Source of the DNA: an uncultured Holophagales bacterium | GTDB lineage: Bacteria; Acidobacteriota; Thermoanaerobaculia; Multivoradales; UBA5704 | NCBI GenBank assembly: GCA_963842525.1 | Contig: CAWJGT010000009.1 | Coordinates: 800,001 to 864,000 of the forward strand | DNA length: 64,000 nt | Reading direction: 5' to 3' | Shown here: positions 24,759 to 61,427 of the stretch, in pieces | How positions within the stretch are numbered: position 1 is the first letter of the stretch | Layout: each line of letters starts with the position of its first letter | Translations under genes and position numbers: made by a program | Notes under the pieces: model-generated | What the model was told of the DNA's origin: nothing | The model's input: only the letters and a program-made list of their open reading frames with translations | Databases searched by the model: none

Positions 24759-25533
24759 GTGCGACACGAAGGGAGGTCTGATGTGAGCTGATTTGCCGAT
24801 TACAGAGAGACCTCCTGGGTCTCGAAGGCCAGCGGGTGGAAGTCCCGCCCGGGGAATTGTCGGTTCGCCCGGTAGCCACTGGAGCAGCCGAGCTCGAGCA
24901 ATCGTCCGGCTGAAGCCTCCGGGGAAGTCCTCGGTGCAACCGAGGTGCAAATGCGCAGGCCGAAAAGCACGTGAACCCTGAGCAGGCCTCGATAGTTTCT
25001 CGCTGGAGCCGACCCTCCTGCCATAAGGGGAAGGCCGTCGGGGGGTGGGGGAGCAACCGACCGAAGAACCCGTCCTCTCCAGCCGGGGTAGTGGGGTCAG
25101 CATGCGCAGACAAGGTCTTTGAGGCAACGTGTGAGATCCACATAGGTGGTGGGTCGCGGCCACCAACCGAGGTGATCTGAAATGGTCAGCCTCGGGCCGT
25201 GTGGAAGTCGGAGGGGCCCATGGTACCGAGGAAGCCGGGTAATGCCGGTGGAGGGACGGAGCCCTGGTTCGGGCATGCTTCTCAACGAGAAGGAGACCGG
25301 GAATTGACGATGAGTCTAGAACCCGATCAAGTCGAGTGTAGACGCCCGCCTTATTTCGTGACCGCCGCCTGAGTTTTTCCCAGTTTTCAGCGTGGTCAGG
25401 TAGATTCGTCGGCGCAGGAGTGCGGGACGATTTTGCCTGTGGAGAGGTCGGGCAAGGCAAGCGAAGCCCGCCGGGCTCTCCTTGTGTCTTTTGGCGGACC
25501 GGGGATGACCCGACGGGCTTCCGAGAGGAGGCC

Positions 25534-26097
25534 ATGTTAAGTCTGAAGGGCGTGGGCTGCAAGCAGTATCGAGAGCAGATGGACGGCGGGGCGGTTCCCG
25601 AGCTGAGCTGCCCGGATCCGGATTGTCAGAGGACCCGTCTGCGGGGCCACGGCTCCTACAAGCGCTTCCTCGCAGGAGTGCTTCAGGCCTTGCGGCGGGT
25701 GCGGTGCCCGCGTTGCAGGGTCAGCCATGCGGTGTTGCCGGAGGACGTGTGCGCCTATCGCGATTTGACCTTGGCGGCCGTGGAGGCGGGTCTGGCTGCG
25801 GGGAGTCCGAGCGAAGGCGCCGAGGTTTCAGGGCAGTGCGGCAGTTCGGGGGTGCGGCGGGTGCGGGGTTGGCTGCGCAGCGCGCACGAGCCCTTTGCCG
25901 CCAAGCTGCAGGCGCTGCTGGGGCCAGTGCCGGCTCCGTGGTGGCGGGGGGCGCAGGAGGTGGTGGGCCAGGCGGCGGGTTGGTTGACGCGGCTGCGGCA
26001 CTTTCTGTGGTCGTCCTGGGGCTGCTTTTTCGGCGGAGTGAGCGGACTGTTCCGCCACGGCCGGCCGTCCTGGCGGTCAGGGGAGGCCTCTCCATAG
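25534..26097 (+). CDS. Zn-ribbon protein (DUF6431-like) of the transposon
   Basis: CPDPDC, GHGSYKR, CPRCRVSHAVLP; RBS GAGGAGG. Confidence 0.7.
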   Translation: MLSLKGVGCKQYREQMDGGAVPELSCPDPDCQRTRLRGHGSYKRFLAGVLQALRRVRCPRCRVSHAVLPEDVCAYRDLTLAAVEAGLAAGSPSEGAEVSGQCGSSGVRRVRGWLRSAHEPFAAKLQALLGPVPAPWWRGAQEVVGQAAGWLTRLRHFLWSSWGCFFGGVSGLFRHGRPSWRSGEASP

Positions 26098-26188
26098 GTT
26101 GGTAACTACCCATCGCAGGGTTCTGCCACGAAGCTACTGGCGGGGGCTGTGGGATGGTCCCAGAGCCCGATTGCGGAGACTTCGTGCG

Positions 26189-27517
26189 ATGGATGAGAGC
26201 CAAAGAGAGCAGATTGCGTTGTTTCGCCACAGCGTCATTGCCGAGCTGATCAGCCGGCCGTTGGCGCCACGCGAAAAAGAGAAGCTGTTGTGTGCGATCG
26301 CGGAAAAGACGTGGACGATCCCGGGCAGCGCGCGCAGCCACGTCGGCCGTTCGACGGTGCGAGATTGGCTCGAGCTGTACCAGATCCATGGGTTTGAGGG
26401 GCTCAAGCCGGGCCCGCGTACCGATGCCGGGCGCTCGCGGGCGATCCCGGAGGAGGTGCAGGATCTGCTGCTGGCGCTGCGGGCCGAGCGGCCCGGTGCT
26501 TCGCTCGACAGCCTGATCCGCGCCGTGCATCTGTGCGGCCGCTTTGCGCCCAATCTGCGGCTGTCGCGCAGCAGCGTGCACCGCTTCTTCGCCGCCCAGG
26601 CGGTGCCGGCCCGCCAAGGGTCCAGCGCCGAGCCGGACGCTTTGGCTTTCACCTTTCCGCATGTCAACGACCTGTGGACCTCCGACCTGATGCACGGGCC
26701 CCGCCTGCTGGTGCCGGGGCGCAAGGACGGCGGCAAGACCTACCTCTACGCCTTCCTCGATGACGCCTCGCGCATGGTGCCGTTTGCCGCCTTCTACCTG
26801 GCCGAAAACGCCGCCTGCTTCCAGGACGCTCTGAAGCAGGCTCTGCTGCGCCGCGGCCTGCCGCGACGGCTCTACTGCGACAACGGCGCCACCTTCCGCA
26901 CCCACCACCTGCAGGTCATCTGCGCCACGCTGAACATCTCCCTGGTCCACTCCCGGCCCCACAAGCCGCGCGGTCGCGGCAAGATCGAGCGCTTCTTCCG
27001 CCACGTCCGCACCGCCTTTGTCCCCCACCTCACCAGCGAGGTCCTCGCCGATCTGGCCCAGCTCAACCGCGTCTTCTGGGCCTGGCTGGAGGGCGAGTAT
27101 CACCAGACTGCCCACGGCGGCCTGGACGGGCAAACGCCTCTGGACCGCTTTCTGAAGGACCAGGCCCTGATCCGCCCGGCCCCCGAGCACCTGGAGGCCT
27201 GGCTGCGCATGAAGGTCACCCGCCGGGTCGGCCGCGACCGCACCGTCCACCTCGACGGCCGTCTCTATGAGGCTCCCGATGGCTATGCCGGTGAGACCGT
27301 CGACGTCCTCTACGATCCCTATGACCCCGCCCGGCCCGTCCACTTTTGCCGCAAAGGCCAGAGCGCCGAGCTGCCTCTGCGCCGGCTCGACCTCGCCACC
27401 AACGCCACCCTGCGCCGACTCGAAAGAAACAGCGAGCCGGCCAGAGAAGCGCCCACCACCGGCATCAGCTACCTCGAGCTCATCGCCAAGAAGTTCTATC
27501 AGGGGGAGCCCCAGTGA
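26189..27517 (+). CDS. DDE transposase/integrase (rve + Mu-type C-terminal domain)
   Basis: WTSDLM, FLDDASR, YCDNG, GKIERFF. Confidence 0.9.
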   Translation: MDESQREQIALFRHSVIAELISRPLAPREKEKLLCAIAEKTWTIPGSARSHVGRSTVRDWLELYQIHGFEGLKPGPRTDAGRSRAIPEEVQDLLLALRAERPGASLDSLIRAVHLCGRFAPNLRLSRSSVHRFFAAQAVPARQGSSAEPDALAFTFPHVNDLWTSDLMHGPRLLVPGRKDGGKTYLYAFLDDASRMVPFAAFYLAENAACFQDALKQALLRRGLPRRLYCDNGATFRTHHLQVICATLNISLVHSRPHKPRGRGKIERFFRHVRTAFVPHLTSEVLADLAQLNRVFWAWLEGEYHQTAHGGLDGQTPLDRFLKDQALIRPAPEHLEAWLRMKVTRRVGRDRTVHLDGRLYEAPDGYAGETVDVLYDPYDPARPVHFCRKGQSAELPLRRLDLATNATLRRLERNSEPAREAPTTGISYLELIAKKFYQGEPQ

Positions 27518-28320
27518 ACCTCTATACCACCGCCTTCGGCTTCACCCGGCCGCCCTTCCACGGCCCCCTCACCGCCGACTCTCTGTTTCGGCCTCAGGGG
27601 CTCGAAGAGCTCCACAGCCGTCTGCGCTACCTGGTCGACTCCAGGGCCATCGGCCTGCTCACCGGCGAGCCGGGCAGCGGCAAAACCACCGCCCTGAGGC
27701 GACTGCGCGACGATCTCCACCCCGACCAGGTGCGCGCTGTGTACCTGCACGACACCCTGGTCAACCCCGCCGACTTCTGCCGCCAACTCGCCCTTGCACT
27801 CGGCCTCCAGCCCGAATGGTCTCGCGCCATGACCTTCCGCCTCGTCCAGCAAGAGATCCAACGCCTCGTCAAAGACCGCCACATAACCGTCCTGCTCATC
27901 GTCGACGAAGCCCACAACCTCAGGCCCGACGTCCTCGCCCTCTTCCCCCTGCTCGCCAACTTTGAATGGGACGCAGAAGGACGGCTTGCCTTTCTCCTGG
28001 CCGGTCAATCCGGATTGCGACAGATCCTGCGCCTGTCGCATCTGGAGGCCCTCGCTCAGCGCATCACCATCCGCTTCACCCTGCGCGGCTTCGACCGAGA
28101 CACCACCTGCTGCTACCTCGAACATCGCCTCAAGATCGCCGGCCTGGATCGACCCCTCTTCACCGCCCCCGCCCAGGAAGCCCTCTTTGAAGCCTCCCAG
28201 GGCATCATGCGCAGAATCGACACCCTGGCCCACCACGCCCTGGCCGCCGCAGCCACTTCCAGAGCCAAGCTCGTCGAGCCCGAGCACGTCCTGCAAGCCG
28301 CCGAGGAGATGCGCTCATGA
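27514..28320 (+). CDS. AAA ATPase (ExeA/TnsC/MuB-like)
   Basis: GEPGSGKTT, LIVDEAHNL, LAGQ; GTG overlaps the transposase stop. Confidence 0.88.
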   Translation: MNLYTTAFGFTRPPFHGPLTADSLFRPQGLEELHSRLRYLVDSRAIGLLTGEPGSGKTTALRRLRDDLHPDQVRAVYLHDTLVNPADFCRQLALALGLQPEWSRAMTFRLVQQEIQRLVKDRHITVLLIVDEAHNLRPDVLALFPLLANFEWDAEGRLAFLLAGQSGLRQILRLSHLEALAQRITIRFTLRGFDRDTTCCYLEHRLKIAGLDRPLFTAPAQEALFEASQGIMRRIDTLAHHALAAAATSRAKLVEPEHVLQAAEEMRS

Positions 28321-28559
28321 ACACACCCGAACCCATCCTCGACTACCTGCAAAACCAGGTCCCCGAGTACCCGTTCGATCGCAAGCTCGACGAAGAGTTT
28401 GTCGACGAGCTGATCGCAGACTTCCAGGATCTCAACATTCTCGAGGAGACCAAGACCTTCAGGTGGTATCACAACAACCGGCCGGCCGCCCGTTTCAAGA
28501 ACGTCCGTGTCGGCCTGCGGCGCTGGATTGCCAACTCCTGGGCGCGAAGACCAGAATGA
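28317..28559 (+). CDS. small transposon-encoded protein (80 aa)
   Basis: ATGA overlap with ATPase stop, GGAG RBS, lies within the IRs. Confidence 0.7.
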   Translation: MNTPEPILDYLQNQVPEYPFDRKLDEEFVDELIADFQDLNILEETKTFRWYHNNRPAARFKNVRVGLRRWIANSWARRPE

Positions 28560-30335
28560 ATCAAAGCAACTGCTGAAAACTCGGCCCCTTCGGTCAAAAA
28601 CAGTCCCGGATTCCACCGCCACCCGGCCCAATCCGGGACTGCTCTCTTCCCCCTTCTGTCCGCCACGAAATATTTCGAAAAGGTGGCCACGGAATTACGC
28701 GGGACTCGACATCGAGCGACTCCGGAAGAAGCTGTATGAGAAGGCCAAGCGGGAGCCAGACTTTCGGTTCTACACGCTGTACGACAAGGTGTGCTGGGCG
28801 GAAACCCTGGAGAGGGCCTACCGACAGGCGAAAGCCAACGACGGAGCGCCCGGAGTCGACGGGGTCCGGTTTGAGGACATTGAGGCGTACGGTGTAGAGC
28901 GGTGGCTGGCCGAGCTTCGGCAGGAACTGGTGGAAGAGACCTACCGCCCCCAACCGGTGCGGCGGGTGATGATCCCGAAGCCCGGCGGAGGCGAGCGTCC
29001 CCTCGGAATCCCGACCATCAGGGATCGGGTGGTGCAGACCGCCGTCGTGCTGATCCTTGAGCCGATCTTCGAAGCTGATTTCGAGGACAACGTCTATGCC
29101 TACCGGCCGGAGCGCAGTGCGCACGGCGCACTGGCCGAGGTGCAGGGGCGGTTGTATGGAGGCCAGCAGCACGTCGTAGATGCCGACGTGACGAAGTACT
29201 TCGACACCATCCCCCACGCCGAGCTGTTGCAGAGCGTGGCCCGGCGGGTGGCCGACGGGAAGATCCTGCATCTGCTCAAGCTGTGGCTGAAATCCCCGGC
29301 GGAAGAGAGGGATGAGAGGGGAAACCGGCGGATAACAGGCGGCAAGAAGAGCAAGCGGGGGACTCCTCAAGGCGGAGTTGTTTCACCTCTGATGGCTAAC
29401 ATCTACATCAACCGTCTTCTGCGCCACTGGAGGAAGACCGGGGCGACGCAACGGTTGGGACAGATCGTCTCCTATGCCGATGACTTCGTGATTGTCTGCG
29501 CAAGCCGCCGCCAGGCCGAAGAAAGTCTGGCGCTGGTATCGCGCTGGTTGGCGAAGCTCGGGCTGACGCTTCATCCCACCAAAACGCGCCTCTGTCACGC
29601 CCGAGAAGAGCCGTTTGACTTCCTGGGCTACACCTTCGGGCCGGTGCGGCACTGGCTGAGCGGGAAGAGATTCATCTCGGCTCGGCCATCCAAGAAGGCC
29701 CAGAAGAGGCTCAAGGAGAAGATCAACATCCGGCTACGCCGGGGAAACCCAACCCCTTGGCCCAAGCTGCGAGACCGGCTCAACCGACTCCTGTCGGGGT
29801 GGGCCGAGTACTTCAGCTTCGGTTTTACGGGCCAAGCTGACACAGCCATCAGCTGGCACGTGCGGGCACGGGTTCGGCGATTCCTCTGCCGGCGGCATAA
29901 GCTGCGCGTCAGCGGAACCAGCCGATTCAGCTACTCTGAGATCCATGGCAAGGCGGGAGTGATCGACATCCGCCAGAGGCGTCTGCAAGGAAGTCCCGTG
30001 CATGCCCTCTCGTGAAGCCCGTCCGAGAGCCGGATGCGGGAGATCCGCAAGTCCGGTTCGATGAGCGGCGGTGGGAAACGGAGACACGGCCGAGACTGAG
30101 GCACCGGCGAGTGGCGAAAGCCGCCGGAAACAGCTACTCCCTCGACCTACAGACACCGCGCCCGCCGCCGACTCTACCCTCTGAAGCGGGCACTTATTCG
30201 GCTCAACCAAAATCCGCCCGAGCGTGTCTATTCATGTAAAGGCAAGGAGGGACTCAGTGGATCACGGGTCGGGATCGATGTGTGACGATTGCACGCAAGA
30301 GCTTCTCTACAGATCGATGACCGAGAGGAGCGAAG

Positions 30336-34766: not shown

Positions 34767-35433
34767 GCCCCAGGGGGAGTTTCCCCAGCTCTGCCGGGGT
34801 GGCAGTAGAAGTTTTACATTTCAGGGAGTGTCCATCGCGGAAACTTCCCTCGTGAGCTGCCAAGCACACGAGAGGAGAGGAAACCACGATGGACAAGTTT
34901 GACAGTTTGAACCACACGACGTGGGAGTGCAAATAACACATCGTTCATCCCAAGTGCCGCCGGAAGGTGCTGTACGGCCAGTCGCGGTCGGATTTTGGGG
35001 AGGTGTTTCGCAAACTGGCAGCTCAGAAGGAGAGCCGGATAGAGGAAGGACACTTGATGCCCGATCACGTCCATATGCTGGTGTCGATCCGACGAAGTAC
35101 TCGGTGCCGCAGGTCGTGGGGTTCATCAAGGGCAAGAGCGCCATCCATCTGGCGAGGGTGTATGGGGAGCGCAAGCGCAACTTTGTTGGGCAGCGCTTCT
35201 GGGCGCGGGGATACTTTGTCTCGACAGTCGTTCGGGATGAGGCTGCGATTCGGGAGCACATCAAGAAGCAGGAAAAAGAGAACGAACGATCGCACCAGCT
35301 CAGTCTCTGGCGATGAGTCGCCACCGGAACGGTGTCGCAAACCCCGAGGGGTCGCATTAGCGACCTTCCAGCCGCTTTGAGCGGCTCACAGATTTAAAGC
35401 CCGGCTCTGCCGGCTCTGCCGGGGATACTTACT
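34767..35433 (+). mobile_element. decayed IS200/IS605-family element (boundaries approximate)
   Basis: CTCTGCCGGGG-containing hairpin-like motifs at both ends of a tnpA pseudogene. Confidence 0.7.
34889..35316 (+). pseudogene. tnpA: IS200-type Y1 transposase pseudogene
   Basis: HTTWECK*H, DHVHML (HUH), IKGKSA, FWARGYFVSTV; internal stop and frameshift. Confidence 0.85.
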
Positions 35434-53797: not shown

Positions 53798-53983
53798 GTC
53801 GCCCCAATTTAGGTGCCACCCATTAGAAGGCTCTTGTCAACGACCCACACGTCTCCCACCCGGGAGTGTTCGTTTCAAGAACGGCTCGTTCCGGCAAGAT
53901 GTGCTCCCGTGTCGGGTTTGCGCGCCCGTAGTCTCGCTGTGCTTCAGGTGCGGAGATCCGCACCAGCCACCCATCGGGATCAA

Positions 53984-54017
53984 GGCGGGTCGGAGCCGGT
54001 GACGGCTCCGACCCGCC
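53984..54017. terminator. strong hairpin (possible terminator)
   Basis: Perfect 15-bp stem GGCGGGTCGGAGCCG/CGGCTCCGACCCGCC, no U tract. Confidence 0.35.
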
Positions 54018-54116
54018 CCTGGCACGGTTTGCGTGCCCCCAGAAAATCTTCGGTTCCAGGTTCGTGTCCAAGGGTTCAGGACAACCAATAAGGCTACCTC
54101 CGCCCCCCCGAAAGGT

Positions 54117-55359
54117 TCAGAGGTGCCAGCACATTCGGGCTCACGACCTGGGCGCATCTCCAACAAAAGAGCCAAAAACGGTGGAAGACAGGGGCCAATC
54201 AGCCGTAGAGGGTTCTTTCGCCCAGCACCTAATTGCAGGCTCCCTGTCTTCCACCTGAATCAACCAAAAGCTTGCGCCGACCTGAACGGCACCTGGTCGC
54301 GCAGGATGTAGTACGCGGCACGAGTCAGCTTGTTCGAGATCGTCCGCAGGGCCACCAACTCGTTGGTCCTGGCCCGCTTGCGCTCGTAGAGACGCTTGGC
54401 GAGGGGCTCGAACCGAATGGCGAAATGTGAGGCCTCCATGAACGCCCAGGACAGGTACGGGTTGCCATTGCGTACGTTGCCGGAGCCCTTGACCTTGCCG
54501 TTGCTGAGGTGCTGACTGGGTACACAGCGGCAGTAGGAGGAGAAGTGGCCCGCCTCGGCAAAGCGAGCGATGGAGCCGGTCTCGTACATGATCGTCAGGG
54601 CAAGGGTCAGACCGATGCCGGGAATGCTCTCGAGCAGCTCGAACTCGGGCCTCAGTCTGGCCTGTTTGAGAACAGTTTTCTCGATGCCAGAGATTTGGTC
54701 TTTCAGCGTGCGGGCGATCGCCAGGCTGCTCGTGATCGTCAAGGCAATATGTGGGTCTGTGAATTGCTCCTCGACCTGCTCGGCAGTCATGCGCTTGAGC
54801 TCGCTGAGAGGAACTTGAGTCTCCGGTGTAGCGCGAGAAGACGTTTTTGACGCTCAGCAAGCTGGCGGTGCGCTGTCGCACCAGAAAGGCTCGACGGCGC
54901 AGTAGATCCCGCACCGCGCGCTCCTTTTTCGGATAGATGTGGCCGGTGGGCAAAATGTTGAGGTGGAGTAGACGCGCCAGCCATCGCGCGTCATGGCGAT
55001 CATCGACGTACTTCAACCCCTCGTACTGGCGAACTGCGGAGGTGTTGACCAAGCGAACCTCGTAGCCGGCCTCCATGAGGCCATCCACCAACCAGTACCA
55101 GTTGAAGGTGGACTCCACGGCGATCGCCTGGATCTGCTCCCGGAAGGGCTCCAGGGCTTCCAGGGCCGCCTCCAGACGGTTGGGCAACCGACGGCTGAGG
55201 ACAGCTTGTAGTTGTTCGTTCATCACCACGAGATAGCTGTTGGTTGAATGCAAGTCGATTCCGCAGTACAGTCCCATACGCTCCTCCTTTCAGGGATTGG
55301 TCTCCCGACGAGCCTATCGCGGCTCGTCAGAAGGGAGGAACCTTCTAGAGGATCATCAG
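54117..55359 (-). mobile_element. IS110-family element (IS1111-like, long 3' non-coding region)
   Basis: IS110 transposase; right end fixed by comparison with the copy at 24534; CTGA candidate core at both ends (left boundary inferred). Confidence 0.75.
54260..55277 (-). CDS. IS110 transposase, apparent +1 frameshift near 54810
   Basis: GIDLH, AVEST, KYVDDRHDA, SIPGIG, GNPYLSWAFMEA, split over ORFs 54141..55277 and 54260..54790. Confidence 0.85.
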
Positions 55360-55598
55360 CCGAATCTTGACCTCCTGAAGAGTCAATCGCACTTCCCAGC
55401 CGCGTTTCGGCGAGAAAACTGGCTGGTAAGTAGCACCTGAGCACGCCTTGAGGCCGTCGCTCACCCTTTGTGTGTGCGTTTTGGATGGCTTGTATGACCC
55501 GTCCGGACTTGAAGTGCACACACCTCTCCCTCTTCCGCGCGCAGGAAGTCGGCGGCCGGAAACTGCGAAGGCTGTCAGCGGCCAGAAACGCCCGAAGC

Positions 55599-55830
55599 CT
55601 ATCCGCTCACCCAGGGTAGGGCCGGTGGGCAGCTGCCCGCCGGGAAGACAACATCACGCATCCCCGCCTTGAGCTTTTCCGCAGCCGTTCGAAAGGCACC
55701 CAGGAATTCGCCGTAGGCCCGGTAGAGCTCGAGGCGGACCTTCTTGCTCGCCGCATGGAAGAGAGGAGCGGGCGATTTCTTGGATGGCTGGCCGGCCATG
55801 TCGCTTCTGGTTTCGGATTGCCTCGGGCCC
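55599..55830 (-). pseudogene. C-terminal remnant of a probable REP-associated (Y1/RAYT-like) transposase
   Basis: PLFHAASKKVRLELYRAYGEFLGAFRTAAEKLKAG.RDVVFPAG; recalled similarity only; adjacent to the REP-like cluster. Confidence 0.5.
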
Positions 55831-56003
55831 GAGAGCCGCCTTTGGCGGGCACCTAGTTCTACTTTGTCAGATTCGCTCGGCTTCGGTTGGAGAGGCCCCG
55901 AAGGGGTCTGGGCATAAAGATGCTATGCAGGGCGAGGGGGTGCAAGAGCGGGGCCGCTGGTTGTATGTTTCGGGGAACTTAGCGTTTGAAAGGGGAACCC
56001 CGA

Positions 56004-57142
56004 TGAACCAGACAGCCCAGAAGGCAGAGTTTACGCGAACGGAGAGAGCATTGCACGTGGCATTGGAGCTGGGCGGTAGCGAGTGGAAGTTGGCTTTTGC
56101 TGCGGAGGCTGGCCCGAAACCTCGGCTGCGCTCGGTGGCGGCCGGGGATCTCAACGGGCTGATGTTGGAGATCGGACGCGCCAAACACCGTTTCGGTTTA
56201 CCGGAAACAACTCCTGTCGTGAGTTGCTACGAGGCAGGCCGGGATGGATTCTGGCTTCACCGGTTCTTGCTGCTGGAGGGTGTGGAGAACGTTGTGGTGG
56301 ACTCCTCGAGCATCGAGGTGAATCGTCGGGCTCGGCGGGCGAAGACGGACCGGGTTGACGCTGAGAAGTTGCTGTCGCTGCTGATCCGCTACGCGGCAGG
56401 TGAAAGAAAAGTGTTCGGTGTGGCGCATGCGCCGACGCCGGAGCAGGAGGATGTGCGCCACCTGGGTCGAGAGTTGGAGGGCCTGAAGCAGGAGCGGACG
56501 GCCCACACCAATCGGATCAAGTCCTTGCTGGTGAGCCTTGGAATCCGGGTGAAGGTAGGCAAGGGGTTTGCGCAGCAGTTGGAGCAGTTGCGGCAGTGGA
56601 ACGGCGAGCCGCTGCTGCCAGTCTTGCGGGAGCGTCTGCGTCGGGAAGTCGAGCGGCTGGAGCTTCTGGAGAGTCAGATCAAGGAGTTGGAGCAAACTCG
56701 GCAGCGGGCCGAAGCCGCGTCCAGAGAGGGCGGGATGGTGCAGCGGCTGAAAAAGCTCAAGGCCATCGGCGACAACAGCGCCTGGTTGTTCGTCCTGGAA
56801 TTTTTTGGCTGGCGGCAGTTCCGGAATCGCCGTGAGGTAGGCAGCTTGGCTGGGTTGACGCCGATGCCCTACAAGAGCGGCACGACGGTGGACCACGAGC
56901 AGGGGATCAGTAAGTCCGGCAATGTGCGGGTGCGTACGATGTCGATCGAGATCGCCTGGGCGTGGTTGCGGTTCCAGCCGCAGAGCCGCTTGAGCTTATG
57001 GTTCCAGGGGCGCTATGGCCCTGGGAACCGGCGCTCGCGACGGGTAGGGATCGTGGCCCTGGCGCGCAAGCTTCTGACCGCGCTGTGGCGCTACTTGGAC
57101 CAAGGGATCATTCCTGATGGCGCTGAGCTGAAGGCCAGGTAA
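56004..57142 (+). CDS. IS110-family transposase
   Basis: VALELG, SCYEAG, RAKTDRVDA, GLTP..SG, GISKSGN, VALARKL. Confidence 0.92.
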
Positions 57143-57193
57143 GGATCAAGAGGCAGAAAGTGTGACCGCAAAATAGGAGATTTCAGGCTGGGA

Positions 57194-57351
57194 GGAGCGT
57201 GCCCGGCGCCAGGCTGGGTTCGGTTTCGAGCCGCCATTAAAGATGGGGCCGCTCCGTTTGCTTGCCCGAGTCGCTCGCAGCGCATGCTGCATTTGGTGCC
57301 CTCTCCAAGAAATTGAGGGAGGTCAGCACGGATAGAAGCTTGACGGGGACT
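57194..57351 (+). ncRNA. putative bridge/seekRNA of the IS110 element
   Basis: Two hairpins with internal loops. Loop 1 holds GCGCCAGGCT and TAAAG (target matches); loop 2 holds ATAGAAG (donor-junction match). Confidence 0.65.
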
Positions 57352-57688
57352 ACGGTTCCTGGCGCAATCGGCAAGCCCCAGACGGGATCGCATTTGAGGT
57401 AGGAGAAACAGCACCTTGCTGCCGGGGGAGCTCCGGGCAACAAACCTCAGGCGGCATTCAGGAAGGAGACGAAACGCAGACCCACTTACCCGAAACGCTT
57501 GACAACGGGGGCCCACATAGAAGCCTGGCGCTTCAGCGCCAGGTTGGCGCCTCCAATTTCCAGGAGCCCTGAAGGGGCGCAGGCATTCCATCCACCCGCA
57601 GCGGGGCTCGCGCACTCGCCCATGCCGTCGCCCCTTCGGGGCTGAGGATTGAATGGGGCCGCGGTCCTGGGGTTGAAACCCCAGGCTT

Positions 57689-59529
57689 GTGCGCCCGTGA
57701 GCGCACACGTTCAGAGAGGTGAAAGTCCTCTTCAGGCATACGCTCTCCGGCCTGTAACCGAAGGTAACTGCGTCGCCCAAAGCGAGGTGGAGAGCAACCG
57801 GAGGTGAGAGACCAGTCCGCAGGAGACGAAATCGATTCGGCCTTGTGACCCCGACGAGCCTGCAAGCCACTGGCGAAGTCTGGACCCTCAAGGGAGACCC
57901 ATCGAGCTGAGGGGTAGCGTGCGAAAGCGGCGATGGGGGGGCGTAGGGTGATTGGATGCAGAATGGTCTCAAAGGACGTGTGACGTGAAGCGGGGAGACC
58001 TCGGTCGGGCAGGAGACTTGCCGAGGAGTCAGAGTCCTCATAGGAGCTGAGAAGCGCCGTAACGGGCGTGGAGCAAAGGGGGACAGGGAGGTGGATGCGT
58101 GACGACTGGACAAGCGGAAAGCAACCGCGCGTCAGTGCCTGTAAGGGCTAAACAAGCCGGAGAAGTCCGGGGCCGGTGGCCCTGGGTGGAACCGCATGTC
58201 TGGACGGATCGCATGTTGACGGCCCTCGAAGCTGGGGTCCAAGGAGGCCAATGGTTCAGTCTGATCGACAAGGTCTATGACTCGCGCAACCTGGACTCTT
58301 CCTACCAGCGGGTCAGGCGGAACCAGGGAAGCGCTGGGGTTGACCACGTGACGGTCGCGCAGTTCAGCGCCCACCTCGGCAAGAACCTGGAGAACCTGGC
58401 GGCTAGTCTGAAAGACGGCAGTTATCGTCCGCAGGCGATTCGCCGGGTGTGGATACCCAAGCCGGGTAGCTCCGAGGAGCGCCCTCTGGGGATTCCGACG
58501 GTTCAAGACCGGGTGGTGCAAGGAGCGCTGCGCAATGTCTTGGAACCGATCTTCGAACGGGAGTTTGCAGCCCAGAGCTACGGATTCCGTCCGGGGAGAA
58601 GTACCAAGGCTGCGCTGCGTCGCGTCTCGGAGCTGCTGGAGGCCGGCTATACCCATGTGGTGGACGCCGACCTGCGCAGCTATTACGACACGATCCCTCG
58701 CCAGGGTTTGATGGCGAGAATCGAAGCGAAGGTATCGGACGGCCGGGTCTTGGACCTGGTGCGTGCCTTTCTCGACCAGGAAGTGATGGTGGGTCTGGAG
58801 CACTGGACTCCTGAGGAGGGAACTCCACAAGGAGCGGTGATCAGTCCCCTGCTGTCGAATATCTACCTGGACCCTCTCGACCATCAAATGGCCGAACAAG
58901 GTTATGAGATGGTGCGGTACGCTGATGACTTCGTGATTTTGTGCCGTAGCCGAGAAGAGGCCGAGCGAGCGTTGGCGGAGGTGGAGGAGTGGACGGCAGC
59001 CGCCGGTCTGCAACTTCATCCCGACAAGACGCGCATCGTGGACGCCACCCAGCCGGGTGGCTTCGACTTCCTTGGGTACCACTTCGAGCGCGGCTATCGC
59101 TGGCCGAGCAAGAAGAGCCTGAAGAAGCACAAGGACACGATCCGTTCCCACACCAAGCGCACGCACGGCATCAGCCTGCGAGAGATCATCCGCCGAGTCA
59201 ACGCAGTCCGTCGGGGCTGGTTTGAGTACTTCAAACACAGTCACGGCACCACGTTCAAGCCTCTCGACCAGTGGGTGCGGATGCGCCTGAGGAGCATCCT
59301 TCGCCACCGGCAAGGGAGACGAGGACGTGGCCGGGGTCAGGACCATCATCGCTGGCCGAACGCCTTCTTTGCTGAGCATGGGTTGTTCTCCTACGTCACA
59401 GCCTATGCTCAGGCCCGTCAATCCTCTAGCAGGTAAAACCACCAACTGGAGAGCCGGATGCGGGAGATCCGCATGTCCGGTTCGGAGGGAGGGGGAGCCG
59501 GGAACTCAACCGGCCCTCCCTACCCCTAT
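57689..59529 (+). mobile_element. group II intron 2 (intact)
   Basis: 5' GTGCGCCCG; domain V GAGAGCCGGATGCGGGAGATCCGCATGTCCGGTTCGG; 3' ACCCCTAT; exons rejoin to a REP-like unit. Confidence 0.92.
58099..59436 (+). CDS. ltrA: group II intron reverse transcriptase/maturase (no endonuclease domain)
   Basis: RPLGIPT, GTPQG, RYADDF, FDFLGY. Confidence 0.93.
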   Translation: MTTGQAESNRASVPVRAKQAGEVRGRWPWVEPHVWTDRMLTALEAGVQGGQWFSLIDKVYDSRNLDSSYQRVRRNQGSAGVDHVTVAQFSAHLGKNLENLAASLKDGSYRPQAIRRVWIPKPGSSEERPLGIPTVQDRVVQGALRNVLEPIFEREFAAQSYGFRPGRSTKAALRRVSELLEAGYTHVVDADLRSYYDTIPRQGLMARIEAKVSDGRVLDLVRAFLDQEVMVGLEHWTPEEGTPQGAVISPLLSNIYLDPLDHQMAEQGYEMVRYADDFVILCRSREEAERALAEVEEWTAAAGLQLHPDKTRIVDATQPGGFDFLGYHFERGYRWPSKKSLKKHKDTIRSHTKRTHGISLREIIRRVNAVRRGWFEYFKHSHGTTFKPLDQWVRMRLRSILRHRQGRRGRGRGQDHHRWPNAFFAEHGLFSYVTAYAQARQSSSR

Positions 59530-61106
59530 TACGCCGTCGCCCCTTCGGGGCAGTCGCAAGCCGGGCTCAGTCTAACAAAGTAGAACTAGGCCGGCGCCCT
59601 TGGGGAAGGGAACGACGTAAACCCTTGATTTGAAGTGAGCAAGAGCCGTGTCCAGTCATTAGGCGGGGTGCCAGATCTTCTGCGGAGGCTCAGAAGGGGC
59701 GCCGGCTCATCGGGTGGAACCTCCTGAGGGGAGGAGCGCGCGCCCCTCCCTGGACCGGGTGTAGAATCGGGTGGAACCTCTTTGGTTCTGCGCCGGCTGC
59801 ATCCAAAACGGCGCGTGCCACCGTCTCAGGCGCAGGAGGGAACGGTGATGATAAGGACCTTCACGATGCTTGCCAGAAGCCTCTTTGCCCTGGCGCTGCT
59901 GGTCAACGCGAGCGGATTGTTATCCCAAACGCTGCCGTCGAGCGATGACAAGAAACGGCTGGAACGTTTCGAGAAGGAGGTCGATGACCTTCGCAACCGC
60001 CTCAAGATCCCCGGCCTGTCCGCGGTCATCGTCAAGGATCAAAAGGTGTTGTGGGTCAAAGGATTCGGTTTCGCGGACCTCGAGAACCGGACCCCTGCGA
60101 CCCCGGATACCCTTTACTCCATCGCCTCAGTGACCAAGACATTCGCGGCGACGCTCGTCATGCAGCTCGTGGAGCAAGGGAAGCTGGACCTCGACGAGCC
60201 GATCTCCCATTACTCGAGCGATTTCAAGGACGATACGGTCAGGATCAAGCACCTTCTCAGCCATACCGCGCATGGAACGCCCGGAGAACGCTTCCAGTAC
60301 GACGGCAACCGCTTCGACTACCTGACGGCAGTCATCGAGAAGAAGACCGGCAAGCGGTTCCTCGAGGTGATCGTCGAAACCTTCTTCGACCCTCTGGAGA
60401 TGTCGAGCAGCGTTCCGTATCACAACGTCGTGGACGATGCGGACAAGTGGGTTGCTTCGCTGGGGAAGAAACACCTCGATCGTTACAGGGAAAACCTGGC
60501 GAGGTTGGCTCAACCCTATACGTATTACGGCGACGGCGAAACCGTTCACGATACCTACCCACCCAAGGATTTCATCGGTGCGGCGGCAGGGTTGCTATCG
60601 ACCGTCCAGGATGTGGCCAAGTACGATATCGCGATCGATCGCCACGTATTCCTGAAGAAGGAGACGCAGGAAAAAGCCTGGACGCCTTTCGTCTCGAACG
60701 GCGGAGAGCGGCTCCCTTACGGATGGGGCTGGTTCGTCACGGATTACCACGGGCTCAAGCTGATCTGGCATTACGGTCACTGGGGCACCGGGTTCTCCGC
60801 GACGTATGTCAAAGTACCGGAGAAGAATGTCTCGATCGTCATGCTCGCCAACAGCGAGGCACTTGCCGACCACGGGGGCGAGGACCTCACAACCAATGTC
60901 TTCGTGTGCAGGTTCCTCGGCCTGTGGGGCCATGCATACGACTGCGAGCGAAATTCCCAAACAGCGCTCGCGAAGTGGATCGAGCAGCGTAGGGCGAAGG
61001 GGCGCGTCGCCGTGCGTGTAGCCCCCAACATCCTCGAAGCCTATGTTGGACTGGAGTTGCCCCGGTTTCGTGGACACTTTATCCTTTGGGATAATAGGAG
61101 TGTCCG

Positions 61107-61427
61107 ATGCCCAGAACCCGTCCCCCGTACAGTCCTGAGTTCCGGCAACAGATGGTGGAGTTGGTGCGAGCAGGTCGCACCCCGGAGGAGCTGTCGCGAG
61201 AGTTTGAGCCATCGGCTCAGGCGATCCGCAACTGGGTCCAGCAGAGCGGCGGGAACGTCGAGAGTCGTCGCGAGGCCGGCGGCCTGACGAGCGCAGAGAA
61301 CGAGGAGCTGCGCCGTCTGAGGCGGGAGAACCGTCAACTGCGTGAAGAGCGGGAGATTCTGGCAAAAGCCGCGGCCTGGTTCGCTCGGGAGACCGGATCG
61401 ATTCCGTCGAGGTGTTCAGATTCGTGA
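61107..61427 (+). CDS. IS3 transposase OrfA
   Basis: YSPEFRQQMV HTH; ELRRLRREN..L..EREIL.KA. Confidence 0.9.
   Translation: MPRTRPPYSPEFRQQMVELVRAGRTPEELSREFEPSAQAIRNWVQQSGGNVESRREAGGLTSAENEELRRLRRENRQLREEREILAKAAAWFARETGSIPSRCSDS

Follow-up and report, generated by a model that had tools for sequence, protein, structure and literature searches.

The entry of insertion sequences (IS) of the IS110 family into repetitive extragenic palindromic sequences (REPs) and the pairing of IS1111 elements with group IIC introns at integron attC sites are already known. According to Leon et al. (2010, PMC3001079), IS1111-attC elements and IIC-attC introns enter attC near the same end and on the same strand. 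For REPs, Tobes and Pareja (2006) place every copy of IS621, ISPpu9/ISPpu10, ISPa11 and ISRm19 at one REP position (7/7, 7/7, 6/6 and 4/4) and two of nine group II intron copies near REPs in Pseudomonas putida; literature searches on REPs with group II introns or with REP-associated tyrosine transposases (RAYTs) found this paper only, and in them no shared insertion position was reported. Terminators "or other inverted repeats" precede the insertion sites of class C introns (Toor et al. 2006; Zimmerly and Semper 2015). Here, a locus of an uncultured Holophagales bacterium is described in which two unrelated RNA-guided elements, an IS110-family element and a group II intron, were confirmed to be inserted at the same few bases of one multicopy palindromic REP. 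It lies in a window (the whole stretch of DNA analysed) of 64,000 nucleotides on contig CAWJGT010000009.1 of assembly GCA_963842525.1 (G000:C9:800001-864000, G000 being the source genome). New are the REP version of the pairing with both guide codes legible, the identification of the Rfam family Acido-Lenti-1 as a REP/REPIN repeat (REPIN, REP doublet forming hairpins), and a widespread clade of hairpin-targeting introns with an AGC domain V.

The source genome is a 34-contig draft of 9.95 Mb with a G+C content of 67.5%, a completeness of 96% and a contamination of 3.4%. Since the assembly is a draft, the copy counts of the IS and the intron are lower bounds. Loci outside the window are cited by contig number and position.

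Two elements at one position of a REP unit

The features of the locus are listed in Table 1. The junction sequences and coordinates given for the IS and the intron in an earlier note on this DNA were exact on re-reading. The left flank of the IS ends with GGGCATAAAG (55910-55919) and the IS itself with CACATAGAAG (57523); joining the distal half of REP unit 1 to 57524-57543 yields a unit colinear with the empty copies. The intron has the hallmarks of its group, namely GTGCG at 57689, domains V and VI, and the 3' end AT. After in silico removal of both elements, a 284-bp doublet remained that aligned without gaps at both junctions with four empty copies (C34:210473-210762, C1:202550-202811, C25:235695-235965, and C3:1845503-1845785), and an empty doublet copy folded as single-stranded DNA gave z = -4.59. 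What the earlier note had called partial units between the two elements is the REPIN spacer with its inner hairpins.

BLAST against the genome recovered four copies of the IS (99.8-100% identity) and five of the intron (100% identity), one of the latter being interrupted by another IS. All four IS copies lie within ...GCATA-AAG-IS-CCTGG(C/G)G(C/T)TTCA..., and all five intron copies within CCTGG(G/C)G(T/C)TGAA(A/G)C(C/G)CCAGG-CTT-intron-TA(C/T)GCC-N3-GCCCCTTC(G/A)GGGC, each element in a fixed orientation and with differing outer flanks. Both elements occur in both hairpin variants. The strict census counted 47 hairpin-CTT units, of which 38 were empty, five held the intron and four the IS; looser and stricter patterns gave 39 and 36 empty sites, and the 8 units with CTA, CTC or CTG were all empty. 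By our own arithmetic, random insertion at one of 47 oriented positions in 9.95 Mb has p ~2.4e-6, and nine such insertions out of nine ~1e-51. The specificity of both elements for this position of the repeat, as proposed in the earlier note, is borne out, with a fixed orientation, by all 4/4 IS and 5/5 intron copies, and genome-wide mapping of occupancy placed none of the nine in unrelated sequence. The doublets around the elements are ~70-93% identical and the element copies 99.8-100%; the insertions are therefore younger than the repeats.

The trinucleotide AAG is repeated at both IS junctions in all four copies without a target duplication, since excision leaves no extra bases. In the sister lineages of the IS, the left flank and the IS end have only AG in common. 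The recombination core is therefore probably AG/CT, with the third base specified by the guide. Of the earlier proposal that both elements hit the same CTT, the shared trinucleotide stands; with an AG/CT core, the phosphodiester bond is not demonstrably the same.

The repeat is a true REP/REPIN family with Y1 transposase genes that are probably of RAYT type. Its units match RF01687 (Acido-Lenti-1), which was filed as a candidate structured RNA (Weinberg et al. 2010) and is still classed as a family of unknown function in a 2026 preprint. In a genome scan at E <= 0.001, in which 150 of 2775 candidates were scored against the cut-off of 37 bits, at least 122 RF01687 matches were obtained, at least 98 of them over the cut-off, with 58.6 bits as the best among those scored; at least 13 minus/plus pairs were spaced 153-157 nt. 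The two insertion-split units of the window scored 27.2 and 21.9 bits under a relaxed threshold, below the 37-bit cut-off. RF01687 was present in 74 of the 91 other genomes of the family. The matched unit comprises 46 nt (hairpin A, CUN UAUGC, and a second hairpin), and in every subfamily, as in the Rfam consensus, hairpin A is immediately followed by CT. A GTAG or CGTC head was not evident 5' of hairpin A; in one reading, G(T/C)AGGC follows the inner hairpins.

Pfam Y1_Tnp had 20 matches in the genome, including eight intact near-full domains; inverted RF01687 units enclose four of these eight genes. One of the four, at C9:225293-225784, encodes 164 aa with the motifs HVHLL and YIRNQEEHH and has inverted CCTGGCGCTGAAGCGCCAGG-CTTTACGCC units of the targeted subfamily on its two sides; those at C3:199401, C32:133626, and C14:204236 also lie between RF01687 matches. 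Pairwise identities among the Y1 paralogues are only 43-59%; they are therefore not copies of one IS200. As a caveat to the RAYT assignment, among the NCBIfam models the RAYT model NF047646 scored 24.6, below its cut-off of 80, and the IS200 model 77.5, above its cut-off of 55. The description of the repeat as REP-like was thus upheld and sharpened by the RF01687 match and the Y1 genes between inverted units, and its multicopy nature by the 47 hairpin-CTT units and the RF01687 matches over the cut-off.

The doublet is enclosed by terminal inverted repeats resembling those of a miniature inverted-repeat transposable element (MITE). With up to 2 mismatches allowed, the genome contains 22 copies of the TTCTACTTTGTCAGA motif; most of them form facing pairs around REP units, and TAA or TAG usually precedes the motif. 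Ends of the same sequence bound a 1.84-kb element with a DDE_5/DDE_Tnp_1 transposase open reading frame (ORF) at G000:C9:1510851-1512694 (L144). These shared terminal repeats indicate that some REP doublets ride in MITE-like derivatives of a DDE insertion sequence.

Table 1. Features of the occupied REP doublet and its carrier, in window coordinates. EBS and IBS, exon- and intron-binding sites; LTG and RTG, left and right target guides.
Feature	Position	Strand	Remarks
Remnant, C-terminal 66 codons of a long Y1-like protein	55599..55799	-	tblastn
Left terminal inverted repeat of the MITE-like carrier, TTCTACTTTGTCAGA	55857..55871	+	encloses the REP doublet; CTAG just outside (55853-55856)
REP unit 1, distal half	55894..55919	-	minus-strand reading CTT-TATGCCCAGAC-CCCTTCGGGGCC: CTT, TAYGCC box, hairpin B
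IS110-family element, IS1111-type layout, 1604 bp	55920..57523	+	83-nt left end, 381-nt right end
Transposase/recombinase ORF, 379 aa	56003..57142	+	Pfam, NCBIfam, structure relatives
Predicted target-binding loop of the bridge RNA	57194..57255	+	10-bp outer stem and 6-bp inner stem around an internal loop
RTG-like 7-mer, CGCCAGG	57207-57213	+	complement of the right flank
LTG-like segment, TAAAG	57238-57242	+	same as the last 5 bases of the left flank
Second guide-like region	57332..57365	+	sequence reading only
Hairpin A of REP unit 1, GCGC type	57524..57543	-	CCTGGCGCTGAAGCGCCAGG on the minus strand; CCTGGCGCTTCAGCGCCAGG as written after the IS
REPIN spacer	57544..57665	.	two inner hairpins (GCCCTGAAGGGGC type) and central segment; aligned to empty doublets
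Hairpin A of REP unit 2, GGGT type (57666-57685), with CTT	57666..57688	+	CCTGGGGTTGAAACCCCAGG-CTT; last 5 nt GGCTT = IBS1
Group II intron, 1841 nt	57689..59529	+	GTGCG...CTAT; ribozyme ~410 + 93 nt around the ORF
EBS1, AAGCC	57864..57868	+	pairs with IBS1 GGCTT
EBS3, A	57951	+	partner T59530, where the 3' exon begins
Intron-encoded reverse transcriptase/maturase, 445 aa	58099..59436	+	RVT_1 and GIIM
Domains V and VI	59449..59529	+	Rfam Intron_gpII RF00029, 55.1 bits
REP unit 2, distal half	59530..59551	+	TACGCCGTC, then hairpin B GCCCCTTCGGGGC (59539-59551)
Right terminal inverted repeat of the MITE-like carrier, TCTAACAAAGTAGAA on the + strand	59571..59585	-	CTAG at 59586-59589

Guides and targets of the IS and the intron

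The ORF of the IS matched Pfam DEDD_Tnp_IS110 (PF01548, 29.9 bits, cut-off 29) and Transposase_20 (PF02371, 56.4 bits), passed NCBIfam NF033542 (IS110 family RNA-guided transposase) with 193.6 bits against a cut-off of 140, and was C-terminally similar to the solved transposases of IS621 and ISCro4. Candidate sub-terminal inverted repeats, CTATGCAGGGC (55923-55933) and the reverse complement of the right end, CTATGTGGGCC, start 3 nt from each IS end and agree, by eye only, at ~8/11 positions; in the IS1111 group, such repeats measure 7-17 bp. Bridge RNAs of this group lie in the right end, according to Durrant et al. (2024).

The four IS copies were aligned with two sister lineages of 76% identity, which occupy other repeats. 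A loop scaffold, GGAGCG-GCCC ... GGGC-CGCTCC around a small hairpin, is conserved across the IS and its sister lineages, and a variable 7-mer on the 5' side of the internal loop is the exact complement of the right flank. The pairs of 7-mer and flank in the source genome are CGCCAGG/CCTGGCG, CCCAGGG/CCCTGGG, and GGCGGAG/CTCCGCC. Relatives of the IS, taken from 12 of the 91 other genomes of the family, add CCCTGGG/CCCAGGG, CCCCAGG/CCTGGGG, and CCCGGGG/CCCCGGG. In six sublineages with six targets, the 7-mer is thus the exact complement of the right flank (at least one copy each), with a 7/7 match in relatives L035, L041, L042, and L043. One relative, from genome G053, occupies the corresponding position in a different REP subfamily (GCATAGAG-IS-CCTGGGGCG). 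In three sublineages of the source genome, the last 5 bases of the left flank (TAAAG or CTCAG) recur at the end of the 3' side of the loop.

In 15 distinct sequences, 97.5% of the cells of the proposed loop stems were paired, two pairs were compensatory, and the covariation score was reached by 0 of 500 shuffles. Durrant et al. (2024) describe an LTG that binds the bottom strand on the left and an RTG that binds the top strand on the right; the polarity of the guides here fits, the right guide being complementary and the left guide identical to the top strand. A second guide-like region follows the loop: ATAGAAG (57332-57338) is repeated as the final 7 nt of the IS and resembles a left donor guide, and CCTGGCGC (57358-57365) shares its sense with the right target flank. 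The IS would accordingly read its REP site through a 3' bridge-RNA-like loop of a predicted RNA, which would specify CGCCAGG-CT-TTA. One of the 76%-identical sister copies (528531-530085) is located within G000:C34:527705-531519 between RAYT-type genes of another REP family, which indicates that the sister lineage also lands in REPs beside transposase genes.

The reverse transcriptase of the intron matched TIGR04416 at 389.6 bits and carries only Pfam RVT_1 and GIIM, with 35 residues after GIIM and no endonuclease domain. Its relatives (52-81% identity) occur in metagenome-assembled genomes labelled Acidobacteriota, Planctomycetota, Desulfomonile, Polyangiales, Verrucomicrobiae, Lentisphaerae, and others, the phyla named being Acidobacteriota, Planctomycetota, Desulfobacterota, Myxococcota, and Verrucomicrobiota, among others; the 5' part of the ribozyme matched 24 of the 91 other genomes of the family. 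In 64 cross-phylum pairs of intron and target, exon positions -1 to -5 paired with the EBS1 columns in 64, 62, 60, 62, and 61 cases; in the 16 pairs of the family-only set, these numbers were 16, 16, 14, 15, and 15. All four bases occur at position -1 and were paired in 64/64. EBS3 paired with the first 3'-exon base in 62/64 cross-phylum and 15/16 family pairs. Several relatives located in REP-type hairpins followed by CTA or CTG carry EBS1 TAGCC or CAGCC. No EBS2 partner was found for exon positions -6 to -14, where the best columns reached 38-52 of the 64 pairs and were non-contiguous, and the family set agreed. The check for EBS1 and EBS2 complementary to the 5' exon, suggested in the earlier note, was positive for EBS1, where AAGCC pairs with GGCTT, and negative for EBS2. 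Both elements thus carry guide segments complementary to the site that covary with it in sister lineages.

Of 65 distinct 5' flanks, 61 contained a hairpin whose end lies 0-7 nt ahead of the site (most often 3 nt), compared with 165 of 800 random positions from the same loci, and by inspection all 20 complete intron copies of the family follow a hairpin. In the source genome, four intron copies occupy the GGGT type and one the GCGC type. Because these variants differ at two compensatory stem pairs, this distribution suggests that the intron reads the shape of the hairpin, not its sequence. The predicted specificity of the intron is GGCTT, followed by T after the insertion point, together with a hairpin.

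The two codes overlap on six bases, and a single stretch of 12 bases shows both. Insertion of the IS leaves hairpin A-CTT beside the IS end, with IBS1 intact and only IBS3 altered; insertion of the intron spares the 7-mer site as well as the AG core. The idea that the elements compete for the position, raised in the earlier note, was not supported: 38 of 47 sites are empty, none is doubly occupied, and each element spares part of the recognition sequence of the other.

Several further forms of the intron were observed. ORF-less derivatives of its lineage (G000:C8:45341-46069, L007, and L027; 729, 733, and 191 nt) retain both ends and still stand after a hairpin and a matching IBS1. Soil-metagenome contigs (runs X2-X4) contain a relative with 90-95% identity and A>T at both 57864 and 57951, i.e., at the first base of EBS1 and at EBS3, a coordinated retargeting to GGCTA followed by A; the flank on one soil contig reads CGGGTTGAAACCCGGGGCTA-GTGCGCC, the intron starting at GTGCGCC. 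The interrupted intron copy (G000:C1:132463-134120) contains a 1658-bp IS with at least 17 copies and an 8-bp duplication, GTTATGAG. A candidate empty allele of the intron site, a joint of 57687 to 59529 on one contig of run X1 with 23 letters on the short side, was read as a paralogue because its loose end (59585) agrees with the sequence flanking the empty paralogue C34:210473.

Mechanism, rival explanations and class of the intron

The reading considered likely is that each REP unit of one doublet was invaded independently at hairpin A-CT(T) by an RNA-guided element. The locus represents a single REPIN-type doublet of two inverted REP units (~284 bp) within MITE-like terminal repeats. Its left unit would have been invaded by the IS, which may transpose as a circle and be placed by a bridge RNA from its 381-nt right end, with exchange at the AG/CT core. 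As hairpin A is nearly palindromic, the 7-mer site is present on both strands, and the CT core with the adjoining TTA would fix the orientation of the IS. The right unit would have been invaded by the endonuclease-less intron through reverse splicing after GGCTT, with EBS1 paired to IBS1 and EBS3 to T; the hairpin would take the place of IBS2, as in IIC introns, and no EBS2 would be involved. Site-specific insertion, the exact junctions, the covariation of guides with targets, and the REP/RAYT nature of the repeat are seen in the sequences; the model further presumes that the bridge RNA is expressed, that the intron particle recognizes the hairpin, that cDNA synthesis may be primed at replication forks, and that REPs may serve as harmless landing sites.

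Some observations weigh against this model. No RNA run turned up among the sequencing runs listed for the locus. The minimum-energy fold of 57190-57400 pairs the proposed guide loops differently and, with z = -1.38, scores no better than shuffled sequences. A clear right donor guide did not emerge from the alignment of the IS copies, and the match of the left guide covers only 5 nt, with an unbroken run of 2-8 nt in other genomes. The IS copy on C19 sits in a GGGT hairpin with a 6/7 guide match, the complement of the own 7-mer of relative L039 was not found within 520 nt, and relative L040 is cut by a contig end. One intron copy of a relative (L031) sits where EBS1 mismatches. The copy numbers, four and five in a draft assembly, are small.

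Hitch-hiking, in which each element entered a doublet once and multiplied with the doublet or its MITE-like carrier through a RAYT or DDE transposase, is highly improbable. The doublets do look mobile, as their terminal inverted repeats are shared with the DDE_5 element and RAYT genes are present, and the two intron-bearing doublets of the window and of C12 are similar in inner sequence. However, the adjoining REP differs between element copies that are 99.8-100% identical (3' exons TACGCCGTC, TATGCCTAT, TACGCCTTT, TATGCCCAG, and TATGCCCAC), each element is found in both hairpin variants, and relatives in other genomes have changed guides that match changed targets. In protein-only recognition, the recombinase and the reverse transcriptase would read the hairpin, and the complementarity of the RNA would be incidental. 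Against this, complementarity accompanies the target across six 7-mers in the IS and, in the intron, across each of the four bases seen at exon position -1 (64/64); incidental complementarity would not covary, and the RNA guidance of IS621 has been demonstrated experimentally (Durrant et al. 2024). We regard protein-only recognition as very unlikely, even though a hairpin is part of the intron target (61/65 flanks) and every IS target found is at a hairpin arm.

The CT after hairpin A might alternatively be the cleavage site of a RAYT, whose nicks or single-stranded hairpins would attract both elements. According to Corneloup et al. (2021), RAYTs cleave single-stranded REPs at CT 5' or 3' of the hairpin; CT adjoins hairpin A in all subfamilies here, and an endonuclease-less intron reverse transcriptase could take a RAYT nick as a primer. 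Such RAYT-assisted entry is nevertheless unlikely, given that the intron clade uses non-REP hairpins in many phyla and that guide pairing alone explains the position. Independent invasion by guided elements is thus preferred.

The class of the intron was weighed on its domain V, its target and its reverse transcriptase. The best solved relatives of the latter are the GsI-IIC reverse transcriptase (230 bits) and entry 7uim (229 bits), followed at lower scores by entry 6me0 (147 bits) and LtrA (131 bits). We take 7uim to be the reverse transcriptase of a Eubacterium rectale IIC intron, 6me0 that of the IIB intron T.el4h, and LtrA a IIA enzyme. Domain V (59451-59483) is of standard length, contains the triad AGC and follows the full Rfam consensus except for one loop base; the AGC triad is present in 72 of 76 relatives, the other four not having been parsed. 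In class IIC, domain V has a CGC triad and a distal stem shorter by 2 bp, and IBS1 spans 3-4 bp (Toor et al. 2006); hairpin targeting is known only for class C (Zimmerly and Semper 2015). The present domain V has neither the CGC triad nor the shorter distal stem, and IBS1-EBS1 comprises five contiguous covarying pairs in place of 3-4 bp. A candidate for the epsilon-prime bulge, which in class IIC spans 11 nt with a conserved AGGAA, is AAGGTAA at 57761-57767, with AAGGAAA in the same column of some relatives. The Rfam search at E <= 1 over 55850-59620 yielded no domain I-IV family for the intron, so Rfam assigns it no class. The absence of an endonuclease domain and of EBS2, the use of EBS3, the dependence on a hairpin, and a ribozyme of ~500 nt are IIC-like traits. 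With these traits set against an AGC domain V of standard length and a 5-bp IBS1, the intron is called IIC-like, not canonical IIC. Of the earlier description, the standard-length AGC domain V was confirmed and speaks for the suggestion of a non-IIC intron; against it, the reverse transcriptase is nearest to solved IIC enzymes and has no endonuclease domain, EBS2 is lacking, EBS3 is used, and the target is a hairpin.

A broader proposal is put forward tentatively and is itself doubtful. The introns with AGC, EBS1 and EBS3, no EBS2, and an obligatory hairpin may form one clade in many phyla, outside canonical IIC, that switches from one REP subfamily to another when single bases of EBS1 and EBS3 change, and the CT of the REP may be a three-way hub of RAYT cleavage, IS recombination and, one base further on, intron reverse splicing. 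If true, the hub would explain the occurrence of Acido-Lenti-1 near group II introns. Such a proximity is reportedly noted, as unexplained, in the database description of the family.

Neighbouring features and comparison with known systems

The remnant to the left of the carrier (55599-55799, minus strand) is 88-98% identical by tblastn to the ORF tails at C3:734356, C9:1080175, and C9:100857, and weak Y1_Tnp matches are carried by the first two; the Pfam search of 55599-55852 on the minus strand found nothing. The earlier suggestion of a RAYT remnant next door is therefore not sustained: the piece consists of the last 60-66 residues of a family of 306-354 aa with weak Y1_Tnp similarity, and the cognate RAYT-type gene lies at C9:225293-225784. 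A broken Y1_Tnp gene of RAYT type, in two pieces with an internal TAA, was found at 34919-35271 (plus strand) of the window, 20 kb from the locus.

A second IS110-family element occupies 53810-55364 (minus strand) of the window. It has an ORF at 54141-55277 (DEDD_Tnp_IS110, 54 bits), a long non-coding end upstream of the ORF, and copies at C9:189634 and C9:243190; at C9:1078375-1080408, a long Y1-like gene again lies immediately upstream of it. Another group II intron, unrelated to the one at the locus and numbered intron 1 in the earlier note, extends over 24830-30177, with a group-II-D1D4-4 match at 24830-24970 (89.8 bits) and a domain V/VI match at 30025-30177 (40.9 bits) that has a long insertion in domain VI. 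Directly to the right of the locus, an ORF of the Beta-lactamase family (PF00144, 194 bits) was identified at 59782-61287 (plus strand).

Through these results, an abundant orphan Rfam family gains an identity: Acido-Lenti-1 behaves as a set of REP/REPIN repeats that have their own Y1 transposases and offer mobile elements a landing site. Two RNA-guided systems display their target codes naturally side by side, backed by dozens of natural retargeting events, which is useful for working out how hairpin-dependent introns find their targets and which rules bridge RNAs of the IS1111 type obey. A widespread hairpin-targeting intron clade without the canonical IIC domain V is also flagged. The attC precedent is extended to REPs, and structured multicopy sites may recurrently attract the same pair of elements.

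Compared with IS1111-attC (ISPa21 and ISPst6) and group IIC-attC elements, the pair of elements, the use of one multicopy structured site, and the fixed strand are the same. Here, however, the site belongs to a soil bacterium and is a REP/REPIN of RAYT type in place of an integron recombination site; both guides are legible and overlap on six bases, domain V is of the AGC type, and IBS1 has 5 bp. From the REP-targeting IS621 (Escherichia coli), ISPpu9/ISPpu10 (P. putida), ISPa11, and ISRm19, the present IS differs in phylum and in REP family. In IS621, the LTG and RTG of the bridge RNA pair with opposite strands around a CT core (Durrant et al. 2024), and the guide lies in the left end, whereas here it is predicted from sequence to lie in the right end.

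The IIC introns B.h.I1 and GsI-IIC share with the present intron the lack of an endonuclease domain and of EBS2, the use of EBS3, and a stem-loop at the position of IBS2. In contrast, the intron described here has an AGC domain V of standard length, a 5-bp IBS1, CTN in place of a T run after the hairpin, and a ribozyme of ~500 nt. With REPIN/RAYT systems (Bertels and Rainey) and TnpA_REP REPtrons (Ton-Hoang, Corneloup), the repeat has in common inverted REPs with a spacer, Y1 genes flanked by inverted REPs, divergent Y1 paralogues each with its own REP subfamily, and CT beside the hairpin; it differs in that no GTAG/CGTC head is evident, each unit has two or three hairpins, and the RAYT model scores below its cut-off. 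With RF01687 Acido-Lenti-1, the same 46-nt unit is shared, which here behaves as a DNA repeat, i.e., a REP.

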